NCBI RefSeq assembly: GCF_024223415.1
Contig: NZ_CP100500.1
Strand: one strand, 5' to 3'
Source: Escherichia coli
GTDB taxonomy: Bacteria > Pseudomonadota > Gammaproteobacteria > Enterobacterales > Enterobacteriaceae
Length of the DNA stretch: 64,000 nt
Within the stretch, counting starts at the first letter, position 1; each line of letters begins with the position of its first letter. A program made the translations under genes and the position numbers. Below, in pieces: positions 1,555 to 41,134 of this stretch. The notes under the pieces are model-generated. The model was not told where the DNA came from. It saw only the letters and a program-made list of their open reading frames with translations, and did no database searches.

Positions 1555-2130
1555 ATGGCCATACAGGGTCTTGAGCAGGCCGTTGAAAACCTCAGCCGTA
1601 TCAGCAGAACGGCGGTGCCTGGTGCCGCCGCAATGGCCATTAACCGCGTGGCCACAACGGCGATTAATCAGTCTTCGTCTCAGGTCGCCCGTGAAACCCG
1701 GGTGCCGAGAAAACTTGTTAAAGAGCGATCCAGACTGAAACGGGCTACGGTCAGAAATCCGAACGCAAAAATTATCGTTAACCGCGGCGATCTTCCTGTG
1801 ATTAAGCTGGGGATCAGGATGCTGGGACGTCGCCCGAACAGCATACTCAAAGCCGGTCAGCATCGTTATCAGCGGGCATTCATCCAGCGACTGAATAATG
1901 GGCGCTGGCATGTTATGCAACGTCTGCCAGAAGCCAGGTATGCGAAGGGCAATGACGATAAGGGAAGGAAAAAGCGTAATCGTCTTCCCATTCAGGTGGT
2001 GAAAATTCCGATGTCGGCCCCACTGAAACAGGCTTTTGATGAGAACGTTAACCGTATCCGACGCGAACGTCTGCCAAAAGAACTGAGCTATGCGCTGAAA
2101 CAACAACTGAGGATTGTGATAAAGCGATGA
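1555..2130 (+). CDS. Z: Tail completion protein, lambda Z-like
   Basis: 191 aa, order and size as lambda gpZ. Confidence 0.75.
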   Translation: MAIQGLEQAVENLSRISRTAVPGAAAMAINRVATTAINQSSSQVARETRVPRKLVKERSRLKRATVRNPNAKIIVNRGDLPVIKLGIRMLGRRPNSILKAGQHRYQRAFIQRLNNGRWHVMQRLPEARYAKGNDDKGRKKRNRLPIQVVKIPMSAPLKQAFDENVNRIRRERLPKELSYALKQQLRIVIKR

Positions 2131-2522
2131 AAAATACTGATATCCGTACAGCCGTACTGGATGCACTGGAGAAGCATGACACCGGGGCGACGTTTTTTGA
2201 TGGTCGCCCCGCTGTTTTTGATGAGGCGGATTTTCCGGCAGTTGCCGTTTATCTCACCGGCGCTGAATACACGGGCGAAGAGCTGGACAGCGATACCTGG
2301 CAGGCGGAGCTGCATATTGAAGTTTTCCTGCCTGCTCAGGTGCCGGATTCAGAGCTGGATTCGTGGATGGAGTCCCGGATTTATCCGGTGATGAGCGATA
2401 TCCCGGCACTGTCAGATTTGATCACCAGTATGGTGGCCAGTGGCTATGACTACCGGCGCGACGATGATGCGGGCCTGTGGAGTTCAGCCGATCTGACTTA
2501 TGTCATTACCTATGAAATGTGA
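2127..2522 (+). CDS. U: Tail terminator protein, lambda U-like
   Basis: 131 aa, 4-nt overlap with Z, same size as lambda gpU. Confidence 0.8.
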
Positions 2523-2529
2523 GGACGAT

Positions 2530-3270
2530 ATGCCAACACCAAATCCTCTGGCACCGGTGAAAGGGGCCGGGACCACCCTGTGGGTTTATAAGGGGAACGG
2601 TGACCCTTATGCGAACCCGCTTTCAGACAATGACTGGTCGCGTCTGGCTAAAGTTAAAGACCTGACGCCCGGCGAACTGACCGCAGATTTCTATGACGAC
2701 AGCTATCTCGATGATGAAGATGCGGACTGGGCCGCGACCGGACAGGGGCAGAAATCCGCCGGAGATACCAGCTTCACGCTGGCGTGGATGCCCGGAGAGC
2801 AGGGGCAGCAGGCGCTGCTGGCGTGGTTTAATGAAGGTGATACCCGTGCCTATAAAATCCGCTTCCCGAACGGCACGGTCGATGTGTTCCGCGGCTGGGT
2901 CAGCAGCATCGGTAAGGCGGTGACAGCGAAGGAAGTGATCACCCGCACGGTGAAAGTCACCAACGTGGGACGTCCGTCGATGGCAGAAGATCGCAGCACG
3001 CTAACAGCGGCAACCGGCATGACCGTGACGCCTGCCAGCACCTCGGTGGTGAAAGGGCAGAGCACCACGCTGACCGTGGCATTCCAGCCGGAAGGCGCAA
3101 CCGACAAGAGCTTCCGTGCGGTGTCTGCGGATAAAACAAAAGCCACCGTGTCGGTCAGTGGTATGACCATCACCGTGAAGGGCGTTGCTGCAGGCAGGGT
3201 CAACATTCCGGTCGTATCCGGTAATGGTGAACTTGCTGCGGTTGCAGAAATCAACGTCACCGCCAGTTAA
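2530..3270 (+). CDS. V: Major tail tube protein, lambda V-like, with C-terminal Ig-like domain
   Basis: [23 protein letters not shown]-terminus; ATG 2530 preferred over the ORF-track start at 2500; beta-rich C-terminal domain. Confidence 0.8.
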
Positions 3271-3285
3271 TCCGGAGAGTCAGCG

Positions 3286-3708
3286 ATGTTCCTGAAAAAC
3301 GAATCATTTGAACATAACGGCGTGACCGTCACGCTTTCTGAACTGTCAGCCCTGCAGCGTATTGAGCATCTTGCCTGGTTGAAAGAGCAGGAAAAAAAGG
3401 CTGAATCCAGTGGCAACCTGCAGGTGTCTGTAGAGGATCTTATCAGAGGCGGGGCGTTTCTGGTGGCGATGTCTCTGTGGCATAACCATCCGCAGAAGAC
3501 AAAGCTGCTGCCCATGAATGAAGCCATTACGCAGATTGAGCAGGAAGTGCTTACCACCTGGCCCACGGAGGCAATTGCTCAGGCTGAAAACGTGGTGTTA
3601 CGTCTGTCCGGAATGTCTGAGTTTGTTGTGAATAATGCCCCTGAACAGGCAGATGACGCCGGGCCTGCAGAGCCTGTTTCTGCGGGAAAGTGTTCGACGG
3701 TGAGCTGA
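3286..3708 (+). CDS. G: Tail assembly chaperone, lambda G-like
   Basis: 140 aa immediately upstream of the tape measure gene; ends just after a GGGAAAG heptamer. Confidence 0.8.
   Translation: MFLKNESFEHNGVTVTLSELSALQRIEHLAWLKEQEKKAESSGNLQVSVEDLIRGGAFLVAMSLWHNHPQKTKLLPMNEAITQIEQEVLTTWPTEAIAQAENVVLRLSGMSEFVVNNAPEQADDAGPAEPVSAGKCSTVS
3684..3690 (+). other. Slippery heptamer G GGA AAG for -1 programmed ribosomal frameshift (G to G-T)
   Basis: GGGAAAG sits 16 nt before the G stop; the -1 frame opens straight into the T reading frame. Confidence 0.65.
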
Positions 3709-4124
3709 GTTTTGCCCTGAAACTGGCGCGTGAGATGGGGCGACCCGACTGGCGCGCCATGCTTGCCGGGATGTCATCCACGGAGTATGCCGACTGGCAC
3801 CGCTTTTACAGTACCCATTATTTTCATGATGTTCTGCTGGATATGCACTTTTCCGGGCTGACGTACACCGTGCTCAGCCTGTTTTTCAGCGATCCGGATA
3901 TGCATCCGCTGGATTTCAGTCTGCTGAACCGGCGCGAGGCTGACGAAGAGCCTGAAGATGATGTGCTGATGCAGAAAGCGGCAGGGCTTGCCGGAGGCGT
4001 CCGCTTTGGCCCGGACGGGAATGAAGTTATCCCTGCATCCCCGGATGTGGCGGACATGACGGAGGATGACGTAATGCTGATGACAGTATCAGAAGGGATC
4101 GCAGGAGGAGTCCGGTATGGCTGA
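3690..4124 (+). CDS. T: T segment of the G-T fusion tail assembly chaperone (made by -1 frameshift, no own start)
   Basis: Open frame overlapping the G 3' end and ending 8 nt into H, the lambda G/T arrangement. Confidence 0.7.
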   Translation: MFDGELSFALKLAREMGRPDWRAMLAGMSSTEYADWHRFYSTHYFHDVLLDMHFSGLTYTVLSLFFSDPDMHPLDFSLLNRREADEEPEDDVLMQKAAGLAGGVRFGPDGNEVIPASPDVADMTEDDVMLMTVSEGIAGGVRYG

Positions 4125-6696
4125 ACCGGTAGGCGATCTGGTCGTTGATTTAAGTCTGGATGCGGCCAGGTTTGACGAGCAGATGGCCAGAGTCAGGCGT
4201 CATTTTTCCGGTACGGAAAGTGATGCGAAAAAAACAGCGGCAGTCGTTGAACAGTCAATGAACCGGCAGGCGCTGGCTGCACAGAAAGCGGGGATTTCCG
4301 TCGGACAGTATAAAGCCGCCATGCGTATGCTGCCTGCACAGTTCACCGACGTGGCCACACAGCTTGCAGGCGGGCAGAGTCCGTGGCTGATCCTGCTGCA
4401 ACAGGGTGGTCAGGTGAAGGACTCCTTCGGCGGGATGATCCCCATGTTCAGGGGGCTTGCCGGTGCGATCACCCTGCCGATGGTCGGGGCCACCTCGCTG
4501 GCGGTGGCGACCGGTGCGCTGGCGTATGCCTGGTATCAGGGCAACTCAACCCTGTCCGATTTCAACAAAACGCTGGTCCTTTCCGGCAATCAGGCGGGAC
4601 TGACGGCAGATCGTATGCTGGTCCTGTCCAGAGCCGGGCAGGCGGCAGGGCTGACGTTTAACCAGACCAGCGAGTCACTCAGCGCACTGGTTAAGGCGGG
4701 GGTAAGCGGTGAGGCTCAGATTGCGTCCATCAGCCAGAGTGTGGCGCGTTTCTCCTCTGCATCCGGCGTGGAGGTGGACAAGGTCGCTGAAGCCTTCGGG
4801 AAGCTGACCACAGACCCGACGTCGGGGCTGACGGCGATGGCGCGCCAGTTCCATAACGTGACGGCGGAGCAGATTGCGTATGTTGCTCAGTTGCAGCGTT
4901 CCGGCGATGAGGCAGGGGCATTGCAGGCGGCGAACGAGGCCGCAACGAAAGGGTTTGATGACCAGACCCGCCGCCTGAAAGAGAACATGGGCACGCTGGA
5001 GACCTGGGCAGACAGGACAGCGCGGGCATTCAAATCCATGTGGGATTCGGTGCTGGATATTGGTCTCCCGGACACTGCCCGGGAAATGCTGGAGAAAGCA
5101 GAAAAGGCTTTTGATGAGGCGGACAAAAAATGGCAGTGGTATCAGAGCCGGAGCCACCGGCGCGGTAAAACCTCAGCATTTCTTGCCAATCTCCGGGGAG
5201 CATGGGAGGACAGAGCGAATGCGCAACTTGGGCTTTCAGCCGCCACGTTGCAGGCCGATCTTGAAAAGGCCAGAGAGATGGCAGCAAAGGACTGGGCCGA
5301 CTCTGAGGCATCACGGCTGAAATATACCGAAGAGGCGCAGAAGGCTTACGAACGCCTGCAGACACCGCTGGAGAAATATACCGCCCGTCAGGAAGAACTG
5401 AACAAGGCACTGAAAGACGGAAAAATCCTGCAGGCAGATTACAACACGCTGATGGCGGCGGCGAAAAAGGATTATGAAGCGACGCTGAAAAAGCCGAAAC
5501 AGTCCGGCGTGAAGGTGTCTGCGGGCGATCGTCAGGAAGACAGTGCTCATGCCGCCCTGCTGACGCTTCAGGCAGAACTCCGGACGCTGGAGAAGCATGC
5601 CGGAGCAAATGAGAAAATCAGCCAGCAGCGCCGGGATTTGTGGAAGGCGGAGAGTCAGTTCGCGGTACTGGAGGAGGCGGCGCAACGTCGCCAGCTGTCT
5701 GCACAGGAGAAATCCCTGCTGGCGCATAAAGATGAGACGCTGGAGTACAAACGCCAGCTGGCTGCACTTGGCGACAAGGTTACGTATCAGGAGCGCCTGA
5801 ACGCGCTGGCGCAGCAGGCGGATAAATTCGCACAGCAGCAACGGGCAAAACGGGCCGCCATTGATGCGAAAAGCCGGGGGCTGACTGACCGGCAGACAGA
5901 ACGGGAAGCCACGGAACAGCGCCTGAAGGAACAGTATGGCGATAATCCGCTGGCGCTGAATAACGTCATGTCAGAGCAGAAAAAGACCTGGGCGGCTGAA
6001 GACCAGCTTCGCGGGAACTGGATGGCAGGCCTGAAGTCCGGCTGGAGTGAGTGGGAAGAGAGCGCCACGGACAGTATGTCGCAGGTAAAAAGTGCAGCCA
6101 CGCAGACCTTTGATGGAATTGCACAGAATATGGCGGCGATGCTGACCGGCAGTGAGCAGAACTGGCGCAGCTTCACCCGTTCCGTGCTGTCCATGATGAC
6201 AGAAATTCTGCTTAAGCAGGCAATGGTGGGGATTGTCGGGAGTATCGGCAGCGTCATTGGCGGTGCTGCCGGTGGTGGCGCATCAGTGTCAGGCGGTACA
6301 GCCATTCAGGCTGCTGCGGCAAAATTCCATTTTGCGACCGGGGGATTTACGGGAACCGGCGGCAAATATGAGCCAGCGGGGATTGTTCACCGTGGTGAAT
6401 TTGTCTTCACGAAGGAGGCAACCAGCCGGATTGGTGTCGGCAACCTGTACCGCCTGATGCGGGGCTATGCGGAAGGTGGTTATGTGGGCGGTGCCGGAAG
6501 TCCGGCGCAGATGCGGCGGGCTGAAGGCATTAATTTTAATCAGAACAATCACGTGGTGATTCAGAACGACGGTACGAATGGTCTGCCAGGTCCACAGATG
6601 ATGAAGGCAGTGTATGACATGGCCCGCAAGGGTGCCCGTGATGAAATTCAGGCACAGATGCGCGATGGTGGTCTGTTCTCCGGAGGTGGACGATGA
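4117..6696 (+). CDS. H: Tail tape measure protein, lambda H-like
   Basis: 859 aa, alanine/glutamine-rich coiled coil, glycine-rich C-terminus; lambda H is about 853 aa. Confidence 0.85.
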   Translation: MAEPVGDLVVDLSLDAARFDEQMARVRRHFSGTESDAKKTAAVVEQSMNRQALAAQKAGISVGQYKAAMRMLPAQFTDVATQLAGGQSPWLILLQQGGQVKDSFGGMIPMFRGLAGAITLPMVGATSLAVATGALAYAWYQGNSTLSDFNKTLVLSGNQAGLTADRMLVLSRAGQAAGLTFNQTSESLSALVKAGVSGEAQIASISQSVARFSSASGVEVDKVAEAFGKLTTDPTSGLTAMARQFHNVTAEQIAYVAQLQRSGDEAGALQAANEAATKGFDDQTRRLKENMGTLETWADRTARAFKSMWDSVLDIGLPDTAREMLEKAEKAFDEADKKWQWYQSRSHRRGKTSAFLANLRGAWEDRANAQLGLSAATLQADLEKAREMAAKDWADSEASRLKYTEEAQKAYERLQTPLEKYTARQEELNKALKDGKILQADYNTLMAAAKKDYEATLKKPKQSGVKVSAGDRQEDSAHAALLTLQAELRTLEKHAGANEKISQQRRDLWKAESQFAVLEEAAQRRQLSAQEKSLLAHKDETLEYKRQLAALGDKVTYQERLNALAQQADKFAQQQRAKRAAIDAKSRGLTDRQTEREATEQRLKEQYGDNPLALNNVMSEQKKTWAAEDQLRGNWMAGLKSGWSEWEESATDSMSQVKSAATQTFDGIAQNMAAMLTGSEQNWRSFTRSVLSMMTEILLKQAMVGIVGSIGSVIGGAAGGGASVSGGTAIQAAAAKFHFATGGFTGTGGKYEPAGIVHRGEFVFTKEATSRIGVGNLYRLMRGYAEGGYVGGAGSPAQMRRAEGINFNQNNHVVIQNDGTNGLPGPQMMKAVYDMARKGARDEIQAQMRDGGLFSGGGR

Positions 6697-7022
6697 AAAC
6701 CTTCCGCTGGAAAGTGAAACCCGGTATGGATGTGGCTTCGGCCCCTTCCGTAAGAAAGGTGCGCTTTGGTGATGGCTATTCCCAGCGAGCGCCTGCCGGG
6801 CTGAACGCTGACCTGAAAACGTACAGCGTGACGCTTTCTGTTCCCCGTTGGGAGGCCACGGCGCTGGAGTCGTTTCTGGCTGAGCACGGGGGCTGGAAGG
6901 CCTTTCTGTGGACGCCGCCTTATGAGTGGCGGCAGATAAAGGTGACCTGCGCAAAATGGTCGTCGCGGGTCAGTATGCTGCGTGTTGAGTTCAGCGCAGA
7001 GTTTGAACAGGTGGTGAACTGA
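6693..7022 (+). CDS. M: Minor tail protein, lambda M-like
   Basis: 109 aa, 4-nt overlap with H; same size as lambda gpM. Confidence 0.85.
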   Translation: MKTFRWKVKPGMDVASAPSVRKVRFGDGYSQRAPAGLNADLKTYSVTLSVPRWEATALESFLAEHGGWKAFLWTPPYEWRQIKVTCAKWSSRVSMLRVEFSAEFEQVVN

Positions 7023-7720
7023 TGCAGGATATCCGGCAGGAAACACTGAATGAATGCACCCGTGCGGAGCAGTCGGCCAGCGTGGTGCTCTGGGAAATCG
7101 ATCTGACAGAGGTCGGTGGCGAACGTTATTTTTTCTGTAATGAGCAGAACGAAAAAGGTGAGCCGGTCACCTGGCAGGAGCGGCAGTATCAGCCGTATCC
7201 CATTCAGGGGAGTGGTTTTGAACTGAATGGCAAAGGCACCAGTACGCGCCCCACGCTGACGGTTTCTAACCTGTACGGTATGGTCACCGGTATGGTGGAA
7301 GATATGCAGAGTCTGGTCGGCGGAACGGTGGTCCGGCGTAAAGTTTATGCCCGTTTTCTGGATGCGGTGAACTTCGTCAACGGAAACAGTGACGCCGATC
7401 CGGAGCAGGAGGTTATCAGCCGCTGGCGCATCGAGCAGTGCAGTGATTTGACAGCGGTCAGCGCGACCTTTGTACTGGCCACGCCGACGGAAACGGACGG
7501 CGCTGTTTTTCCGGGACGTATCATGCTGGCCAACACCTGCACCTGGACCTATCGCGGCGATGAGTGCGGTTATAGCGGTCCGGCGGTCGCGGATGAATAT
7601 GATCAGTCGACGTCCGATATCACGAAGGATAAATGCAGCAAATGCCTGAGCGGCTGTAAGTTCCGCAATAACGTCGGCAACTTTGGCGGTTTTCTTTCCA
7701 TTAACAAACTTTCGCAGTAA
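7022..7720 (+). CDS. L: Minor tail protein, lambda L-like
   Basis: 232 aa with cysteine cluster near C-terminus, as in lambda gpL. Confidence 0.85.
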   Translation: MQDIRQETLNECTRAEQSASVVLWEIDLTEVGGERYFFCNEQNEKGEPVTWQERQYQPYPIQGSGFELNGKGTSTRPTLTVSNLYGMVTGMVEDMQSLVGGTVVRRKVYARFLDAVNFVNGNSDADPEQEVISRWRIEQCSDLTAVSATFVLATPTETDGAVFPGRIMLANTCTWTYRGDECGYSGPAVADEYDQSTSDITKDKCSKCLSGCKFRNNVGNFGGFLSINKLSQ

Positions 7721-7725
7721 ATCCC

Positions 7726-8469
7726 ATGACACAGACAGAATCAGCGATTCTGGCGCACGCCCGGCGATGTGCGCCAGCGGAGTCGTGCGGCTTCGTGGTA
7801 AGCACGCCGGAGGGGGAAAGATATTTTCCCTGCGTGAATATCTCCGGTGAGCCGGAGGCGTATTTCCGTATGTCGCCGGAGGACTGGCTGCAGGCAGAGA
7901 TGCAGGGTGAGATTGTGGCACTGGTCCACAGTCACCCCGGTGGTCTGCCCTGGCTGAGTGAGGCCGACCGGCGGCTGCAGGTGCAGAGTGATTTGCCGTG
8001 GTGGCTGGTCTGCCGGGGGGCGATTCACAAGTTCCGCTGTGTGCCGCATCTCACCGGGCGGTGCTTTGAGCACGGGGTGACGGACTGTTACACGCTGTTC
8101 CGGGATGCTTACCATCTGGCGGGAATTGAGATGCCGGATTTTCATCGCGGGGATGACTGGTGGCGTAACGGTCAGAATCTCTATCTTGACAATATGGAGG
8201 CGACTGGTTTTTACCGTGTCGCACTGACAGAGGCGCAGCCCGGCGACGTGCTGCTGTGCTGTTTTGGTTCATCGGTGCCGAATCATGCCGCCATTTACTG
8301 CGGCGACGGCGGGCTGCTGCACCATATTCCTGAACAACTGAGCAAACGAGAGAGGTATACCGACAAATGGCAGCGACGCACACACTCCCTCTGGCGTCAC
8401 CGGGCATGGCACGCATCTGCCTTTACGGGGATTTGCAACGATTTGGCCGCCGCATCGACCTTCGTGTGA
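7726..8469 (+). CDS. K: Tail tip assembly protein, lambda K-like (JAMM and NlpC/P60-like motifs)
   Basis: HSHPGG motif and a later Cys/His region; overlaps I by about 100 nt as in lambda. An internal start near 7870 would give the 199-aa form. Confidence 0.7.
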   Translation: MTQTESAILAHARRCAPAESCGFVVSTPEGERYFPCVNISGEPEAYFRMSPEDWLQAEMQGEIVALVHSHPGGLPWLSEADRRLQVQSDLPWWLVCRGAIHKFRCVPHLTGRCFEHGVTDCYTLFRDAYHLAGIEMPDFHRGDDWWRNGQNLYLDNMEATGFYRVALTEAQPGDVLLCCFGSSVPNHAAIYCGDGGLLHHIPEQLSKRERYTDKWQRRTHSLWRHRAWHASAFTGICNDLAAASTFV

Positions 8470-9014
8470 AAACGGGAGCCGAAGCCATCCGGGCGCTGGC
8501 CACGCAGCTCCCTGCGTTTCGTCAGAAACTGAGCGACGGCTGGTATCAGGTGCGTATTGCCGGGCGTGATACAGGCGAAAACGAATTATCAGCCCGTCTT
8601 AATGAACCGCTGGCAAATGGTGCCGTGATCCACATCGTGCCGCGTCTGGCGGGAGCCAAACGTGGTGGTGTGTTTCAGGCAGTGCTGGGCGCGGCGCTGA
8701 TTGCGGTGGCATGGTGGAACCCTGCAGGCTGGCTGGGGGCTGCGGCTTTATCGGGCATGTATGCGGCAGGGGCCAGTATGGTGCTCGGTGGTGTGGCGCA
8801 GATGCTGGCACCGAAAGCCAGAATGCCCGGAGTATCAGCCACGGATAACGGCAAACAGAACACCTATTTCTCCTCACTGGAAAACATGGTTGCCCAGGGG
8901 AATGCTCTGCCCGTTCTGTACGGTGAAATGCGCGTGGGGTCACGGGTAATTTCGCAGGAGATCAGCACAGCGGATGAGGGGGATGGCGTCCGGGTTGTGG
9001 TGATTGGTCGCTGA
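8367..9014 (+). CDS. I: Tail tip assembly protein, lambda I-like
   Basis: MAATHTLPLASPGMARICLYGDLQRFGRR and the C-terminal GKQNTYFSSLENMVAQGN..VLYGEMRVGSRV match lambda gpI. Confidence 0.75.
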   Translation: MAATHTLPLASPGMARICLYGDLQRFGRRIDLRVKTGAEAIRALATQLPAFRQKLSDGWYQVRIAGRDTGENELSARLNEPLANGAVIHIVPRLAGAKRGGVFQAVLGAALIAVAWWNPAGWLGAAALSGMYAAGASMVLGGVAQMLAPKARMPGVSATDNGKQNTYFSSLENMVAQGNALPVLYGEMRVGSRVISQEISTADEGDGVRVVVIGR

Positions 9015-9074
9015 TGCAAAATGTTTTATGTGAAACCGCCTCCGGGCGGTTTTGTCGTTTATGGAGCGTGAGGA

Positions 9075-19373: not shown

Positions 19374-19536
19374 AACGATAACTCCGTACATTTGAAAATT
19401 ATCGCCACCTTCAGGTTCCAATCATCATGGTGGCGAACTGTGCGGGGTTGGAACTACCGGGTACGGAAACCGGCGAGCCTTTCGGCTCCCCCACACAGCC
19501 CGCCATAAATCGCGAATGTGACTGTGCAAACGATAT

Positions 19537-19558
19537 GAAAAAAGACGCGGGCGCGTCT
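19537..19558 (-). terminator. Intrinsic-terminator-like hairpin on minus strand
   Basis: Minus strand: GAGACGC-gccc-GCGTCT followed by TTTTTT. Confidence 0.4.
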
Positions 19559-19843
19559 CATATCGCTCCGTAAACATCCGGGGTTCCAATCCCGACGCCA
19601 GATTTTGCTGACGCGTTGGAAATATAGCCCCGGAGGATAAAAACTGTCAACGGGTAAAAAATTTCCGTTATCAGGAATGTATAAAATTAAAGCAATCGAT
19701 CAAAAAATCCTTTCTGCAAAACTAAAAAAGATTTCAATAAAATCAGGCAGTTAAAAACGCTGAAAAACGGTATAAAAAAGCATCTCAAAATCCTGTTTTT
19801 TCTTTCAGATACAATATCTTATTTGATTTTTTAAAACCTGCCA

Positions 19844-28248: not shown

Positions 28249-28270
28249 TGTTATTCTCTAATTTTGTTCA

Positions 28271-28297
28271 AAAAAAAGCCCGCTCATTAGGCGGGCT
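28271..28297 (-). terminator. trp attenuator (3:4 terminator hairpin)
   Basis: Minus strand AGCCCGC-cuaauga-GCGGGCU followed by U7, between trpL and trpE. Confidence 0.85.
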
Positions 28298-28339
28298 GGG
28301 TATCTGATTGCTTTACGCATGGTGAATACACTGCCCGTT

Positions 28340-28384
28340 TCAGGAAGTGCGCCACCAACCTTTCAGTACGAAAATTGCTTTCAT
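28340..28384 (-). CDS. trpL: trp operon leader peptide
   Basis: Minus strand atgaaagcaattttcgtactgaaaggttggtggcgcacttcctga = [14 protein letters not shown], with tandem Trp codons. Confidence 0.9.
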
Positions 28385-40762: not shown

Positions 40763-40875
40763 TTATCATCATTCTTATTACCCATTTTTAATGAATTACA
40801 GGGCTTTTAATACACCGCAGCAATAACAGGTTGAGTTATCTCAACACAAAGTAATAACCGTTAAGGGTGTAGCCT

Positions 40876-40971
40876 ATGATCAACACAAATATGAAATATT
40901 GGTCCTGGATGGGCGCGTTTTCTCTGTCGATGCTCTTCTGGGCCGAACTCCTCTGGATCATTACTCACTGA
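40876..40971 (+). CDS. Candidate small membrane protein (31 aa, MINTNMKYWSWMGAFSLSMLFWAELLWIITH)
   Basis: Short hydrophobic ORF behind GGGTG, upstream of acnA; K-12 has small proteins here but I cannot confirm identity. Confidence 0.3.
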   Translation: MINTNMKYWSWMGAFSLSMLFWAELLWIITH

Positions 40972-41134
40972 TCCCTGACCCTGCTGCGGCGGGGTTTTCA
41001 TTTGCTTTGCCACAAGCTTTCTCCTCTTTTATCAATTTGGGTTGTTATCAAATCGTTACGCGATGTTTGTGTTATCTTTAATATTCACCCTGAAGAGAAT
41101 CAGGGCTTCGCAACCCTGTCATTAAGGAGGAGCT

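Follow-up and report, generated by a model that had tools for sequence, protein, structure and literature searches.

A predicted lambda-type G/GT ribosomal frameshift site in the tail genes of a lambdoid prophage of Escherichia coli

Long-tailed dsDNA phages generally carry two overlapping open reading frames (ORFs), flanked by the genes of the major tail protein and of the tape measure, and the longer of the two products is made by low-efficiency frameshifting (Xu et al. 2004). In most of these phages the architecture is alike whereas the sequence is not, and some of them use +1 or -2 shifts. The G/GT system of phage lambda has been studied by Levin, Hendrix and Casjens (1993) and by Xu, Hendrix and Duda (2004, 2013, 2014), as cited in PMC5009743. 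Shifting at the lambda slip site, GGGAAAG, amounts to about 4%, and its rate is tuned by thiolation of U34 of tRNA-Lys (PMC3296357). Lambda yields more gpGT in tusA or mnmA mutants. The resulting G:GT ratio of about 30:1 is important (PMC5009743). The tape measure protein H becomes coated with many copies of gpG and a few of gpGT, all bound by way of the G part, and the tube protein V is brought in by the T domain; the finished tail contains neither gpG nor gpGT (PMC5009743). Lambda tail assembly requires both proteins, the fusion being made at a few percent of the short product (PMC3296357, PMC5009743). The lambda site has no apparent stimulatory signal, and G_GGA_AAG is described as highly shift-prone in E. 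coli (PMC5009743).

The locus described here belongs to a stretch of 64,000 nucleotides of an E. coli chromosome (assembly GCF_024223415.1, contig NZ_CP100500.1), hereafter the window. The window opens in the capsid gene of a lambdoid prophage. The tail genes come next, followed by genes for a side tail fibre with collagen repeats and for a DUF4376 protein with a putative role in tail-fibre assembly, and by cargo genes. Past these lies the yciE-trp-topA-acnA region of E. coli, the prophage thus adjoining the trp region. Over 24 kb, the chromosome that flanks the prophage matches several E. coli strains with 100.0% identity. Therefore, the host is E. coli and the tRNA and translational context of lambda applies. 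The first 12 kb of the window were found at an identity of at least 99% in no complete E. coli genome of the collection, the best match reaching 97.6%.

On the plus strand, the tail module extends from 1555 to 12983 in the order Z-U-V-G-T-H-M-L-K-I-J. Its ORFs are uninterrupted, as judged from their lengths and from their identities to lambda and to two E. coli prophages. Around the site, the gene order is that of lambda: V (2530-3270), G (3286-3708), T (3690-4124) and H (4117-6696), with G and T forming two overlapping ORFs flanked by V and H. The product of V, the major tail tube gene located immediately 5′ of G, matches Pfam PF16461 (lambda tail tube protein) as well as Big_2, and 232 of its 246 residues are identical to lambda V. 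The tape measure gene H follows directly on T, with 8 bases common to the end of T and the start of H. The 859-residue H protein matches PF06791 (TMP_2) and PF09718 (Tape_meas_lam_C) and shares 776 residues with lambda H. Gene G starts at ATG 3286 and encodes, as its zero-frame product, a tail assembly chaperone of 140 residues that matches PF06894 (Phage_TAC_2, E=2e-51). The T segment is reached only through the -1 frame and forms the C-terminal portion of a conceptual 279-residue GT fusion; it matches PF06223 (minor tail protein T). When this fusion was scored against the NCBIfam equivalogs, values of 184.6 bits for TIGR01674 (phage_lambda_G, cut-off 74.45) and of 185.8 bits for TIGR01715 (phage_lam_T, cut-off 77.35) were obtained. 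Two minus-strand ORFs, at 3551-3781 and 3598-3777, were rejected as spurious, since nothing supports them and the coding sequence on the opposite strand is strongly conserved.

An earlier note on this DNA had placed a GGGAAAG heptamer at 3684-3690, with an overlapping -1 frame opening into T exactly as in lambda. The heptamer is indeed present on the plus strand at this very position, and it is phased as G_GGA_AAG within the G ORF (codons GCG, GGA, AAG). This gives, in the frame of G, the X_XXY_YYZ pattern on which tandem -1 slippage depends. No -1-frame stop occurs right after the heptamer: from 3684, this frame reads GGG AAA GTG TTC GAC and remains open for 146 codons, up to the stop at 4122-4124. 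The nearest upstream stop in the -1 frame is a TGA at 3654-3656, and G itself ends in the zero frame with a TGA at 3706-3708, 7 codons past the first G of the heptamer. These two flanking stops delimit the interval in which both frames are open (3657-3708), and the heptamer lies inside it.

The correspondence with lambda was examined at the nucleotide level. Positions 1987-5102 of the window align with lambda J02459 at 94.5% identity and without gaps. In this gapless alignment, the heptamer falls on lambda positions 10109-10115, where G/GT slippage has been proven by experiment. The 839-bp G-T region matches lambda 9711-10549 with 93.2% identity, and the 88 nucleotides around the site (3667-3754) are those of lambda base for base. 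The T segment is identical to lambda T over 144 of 144 residues, with 4 synonymous and 0 non-synonymous differences. The conceptual fusion has the same length as a lambda fusion built likewise, and 253 of 279 residues are identical between the two. Thus, the likeness to lambda that the earlier note had claimed for the site and the overlapping frame is borne out to the base around the heptamer. Common to both loci are G_GGA_AAG, its phase, its distance of 5 codons before the G stop and the flanking V and H genes. The difference lies in gene G, which is another allele in the prophage (113 of 140 residues identical to lambda G), with changes clustered at residues 31-53 and 73-82. Overall, the site is almost certainly a canonical lambda G/GT -1 programmed ribosomal frameshift site, carried by a lambdoid prophage in the E. 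coli chromosome. Phase, frames, -1 opening and orthology to lambda were all read from the sequence, and nothing in it contradicts a lambda-type site. As such, the feature is already known and ordinary. Unlike the equivalent regions of most long-tailed phages, the prophage site is a sequence-level orthologue of lambda itself.

The nucleotide differences from lambda are unevenly distributed along G, 54 of 58 being located before 3667. The mosaic boundary is sharp: 3286-3666 is diverged from lambda and 3667-4124 is nearly identical to it, the near-identity beginning 17 nucleotides 5′ of the slip site. At the protein level, this corresponds to 81% identity for G and 100% for T. Closer relatives are found among the Escherichia phages PhiR46_1, Turner and IdasGreatGrand, deposited as complete phage genomes, which show 98.5-98.7% nucleotide identity over the 839-bp G-T region (Turner, 98.7%; IdasGreatGrand, 98.5%). 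PhiR46_1, which was read base by base, has the G allele in common with the prophage, with 136 of 140 identical residues.

The sequence of the heptamer is not in itself remarkable. Bare GGGAAAG occurs in 11 copies in the window as compared to 8.2 ± 2.8 expected from shuffled sequence and is thus not enriched, so that the significance of the site rests on phase, position and homology. This absence of enrichment is the one observation that could be taken to mean that the heptamer occurs by chance. Alternatively, the shift might be brought about by slippage of RNA polymerase instead of the ribosome. Homopolymer tracts that support transcriptional slippage are far longer than three G or three A, and the G3 and A3 runs of the heptamer are too short for it. 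Chance is ruled out by position, by phase, by homology to the proven lambda site and by invariance in 79 of 79 related loci. Moreover, ten tail genes, with 3,652 codon positions in all, contain just six X_XXY_YYZ heptamers in frame, and of these six only G_GGA_AAG at 3684-3690 sits in an overlap opening into a long -1 ORF. We therefore give almost no credence to chance or polymerase slippage, and retain ribosomal slippage at a lambda-type site.

The invariance was established by scanning IMG/VR with the T segment, which yielded 80 loci, 79 of them covering the slip site. GGGAAAG is present at the homologous position in all 79. The 9-mer GCGGGAAAG is likewise invariant in 79/79 loci and in 40/40 unique haplotypes, defined over 127 nucleotides and with an overall identity going down to 77%. 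The 60 nucleotides 5′ of the site diverge freely among these relatives, about 8 of the 60 columns being invariant according to a manual count of the conservation line. In several haplotypes the C-terminus of G is completely different and GCGGGAAAG is still kept. Among the bases that never vary is 3684, the third base of the Ala codon. Being four-fold degenerate in G and left untranslated in the -1 frame, this base is constrained by the slip mechanism alone. At every locus, gene G stops 7 codons past the initial G of the heptamer, and the -1 frame continues for 111 to 154 codons. The -1 frame opens 9 codons 5′ of the site in the prophage; among related loci, the most frequent class has 13. Overall, coding requirements alone do not account for the conservation of the slip site in relatives.

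The same data bear on the annotation of T. Both ORF finders and RefSeq give a separate T coding sequence of 144 residues at 3690-4124, starting from GTG 3690; T would then be a gene in its own right, with separate initiation and no frameshift. A stand-alone T that begins at the terminal GTG of the heptamer is also annotated by RefSeq (PGAP) and in several GenBank records of related prophages and phages. It stands at 6691-7125 in the relatives L002 and L003 and at 4405-4839 in L086. However, GTG 3690 coincides with the last base of the invariant slip heptamer, and inspection showed no Shine-Dalgarno sequence at a usable distance before it, the sole purine-rich stretch being the heptamer itself, which abuts the GTG. 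Furthermore, gpG and gpGT are the only products that have been reported from this region in lambda (PMC3296357, PMC5009743), and some records, for instance that of HK630, carry a joined 'tail assembly protein GT'. An independently initiated T is thus very improbable, if a shade less so than chance or polymerase slippage. The correct annotation for the prophage would be G plus a joined G-T frameshift product, and not two independent genes.

In the G/GT frameshift model, ribosomes would start gene G at ATG 3286 and translate it up to G_GGA_AAG, from where the -1 frame encodes the T segment. Most of them, about 96% if the lambda value holds, would stay in frame and stop 5 codons past the Lys codon, giving the 140-residue gpG. 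A few percent would slip back by one base, tRNA-Gly moving from GGA to GGG and tRNA-Lys(UUU) from AAG to AAA. These ribosomes would then read GTG TTC GAC and onward to 4122-4124, giving the 279-residue G-T fusion. The slip rate and the products are assigned here by analogy with the lambda experiments. No RNA stimulator would be required, as E. coli has a single tRNA-Lys that pairs only weakly with AAG, which would make the heptamer intrinsically shift-prone. Folding of the 97 nucleotides that begin with the heptamer (3684-3780) gave -41.5 kcal/mol with z = -2.4, a modest stability, and a contribution of downstream RNA structure to the shift is at most a formal possibility; no stimulator is claimed. 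Because the folded region is almost invariant, covariation is uninformative. An Rfam search returned no family match at the slip site. Over 3000-4400, a promoter scan returned no promoter-like site and a terminator scan 3 matches, as compared to 1.4 ± 1.3 expected, none of them between G and T.

Within gene G, a second in-frame slippery heptamer, A_AAA_AAG, of the dnaX type, is found at 3393-3399 on the plus strand, six of its bases being within an A7 run at 3392-3398. A -1 slip at this position reads three codons (KKG) before a stop at 3402-3404 and would yield an abortive product of 38 residues. The heptamer is allele-specific: lambda has none, whereas the prophage allele has one, as do 13 of about 77 related loci and PhiR46_1, which thus shares both heptamers with the prophage. 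It could be imagined as an allele-specific second layer in the tuning of tail chaperone dosage, a reading that we hold to be improbable. If it were true, a few percent of ribosomes would be diverted at A_AAA_AAG, and the output of G and GT would go down with their ratio unchanged. Probably A_AAA_AAG is without significance, and it may be an adventitious by-product of a Glu-Lys-Lys sequence.

The earlier note had also started from the premise that the capsid gene is damaged, and this premise holds. The 3′ part of the major capsid gene occupies positions 1-780 on the plus strand, and alignment to the two close E. coli prophages L002 and L003 shows a 1-base deletion after position 651, one G being lost (GTGGTGGCC to GTGGTGCC). 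The last 43 residues are thereby replaced by 9 aberrant ones, with a stop at 680-682, and the original stop at 778-780 is now in another frame. By contrast, PhiR46_1 has an annotated major capsid gene E. The deletion is absent from all 1,528 complete E. coli genomes that match the capsid segment, the best genome matches being 99.5% identical (221 as compared to 222 bases). It could be a private inactivating mutation or an assembly or sequencing error. Programmed rescue of the capsid frame was also considered and rejected, there being no slippery sequence at GTGGTGCCTC; the lesion is a plain indel.

The capsid lesion raises the question of whether the slip site is in use. The site could be an intact, silent relic of a defective prophage whose late operon is never productively expressed, and it would then be conserved for lack of decay time. 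Such a relic is compatible with the frameshift mechanism and would dispute its current use only. It is the sole serious qualification to the lambda-type identification, and it may be that this strain never translates the site. The capsid deletion, private to this copy, points in this direction. Regulation, terminase, portal and protease genes are all outside the window, where more upstream damage is possible, and expression of the late operon depends on a late promoter, the Q antiterminator and upstream head genes that likewise lie beyond its limits. In addition, the site is embedded in the 88-nucleotide stretch identical to lambda, so that its conservation here is silent on selection in this lineage. 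On the other hand, the 13 ORFs from FI to J (head-tail joining and tail) are all unbroken, and the capsid lesion could itself be a sequencing error. Neither the tail genes nor those host ORFs that were compared by eye, for length, with E. coli annotation showed a further frameshift, and decay would therefore be at most very recent. Private substitutions outside G lean to the synonymous side, 41 as compared to 23 non-synonymous, although this is a crude count confounded by mosaic recombination, especially in G. Taken together, we regard a silent relic as unlikely, while leaving it appreciable weight.

From the slip site, the earlier note had argued that the tail assembly module is functional. 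In favor of this argument, the ORFs from FI to J are intact, and in the 12 ORFs from FI to I the lengths equal those of the closest relatives. The argument from the site itself stood less well: the slip site is necessary and not sufficient. It is weak because the site would also persist in a recently disabled prophage, given 93-98% nucleotide identity to living phages. The unbroken ORFs, the domains of J and the synonymous bias weigh more than the slip site and point the same way, to a tail that may be functional, so that the argument is supported only in part. With the slip site intact and the ORFs from FI to J unbroken, the tail half of the prophage appears undecayed. The relevance of this would be confined to the release of tails by the strain, or to phage rescue through repair of a single base in the capsid gene. 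Beyond correct annotation, the significance is small.

Gene J (9075-12983, plus strand) encodes the tip attachment protein. It is unbroken and, at 1302 residues, longer than its counterparts in lambda (1132) and in the closest prophages (1169-1180). The protein contains the full set of tip-attachment domains, and its receptor-binding end is lambda-like but diverged. The first 1103 residues match those of the relatives and divergence is observed beyond, the C-terminus being mosaic. Residues 1012-1301 are only 54% identical to residues 841-1131 of lambda J. This C-terminal divergence suggests a different receptor specificity.

Two cargo genes were observed on the plus strand, 3′ of the tail fibre genes. 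The first (15876-17285) encodes a YadA-like trimeric autotransporter of 469 residues with a C-terminal membrane anchor domain, and the second (17346-17801) a small protein carrying a helix-turn-helix of sigma-70 region 4. Rfam matches to the C4 antisense RNA (19426-19510, 78.9 bits) and to the Hfq-binding RNA isrK (19538-19614, 72.7 bits) are adjacent to each other on the minus strand, close to where the prophage ends on its right side and shortly ahead of yciE. Host features are seen further on, with the Trp operon leader 5′ of trpE (28270-28363, minus strand) and the enterobacterial sRNA STnc180 5′ of acnA (40803-41005, plus strand).
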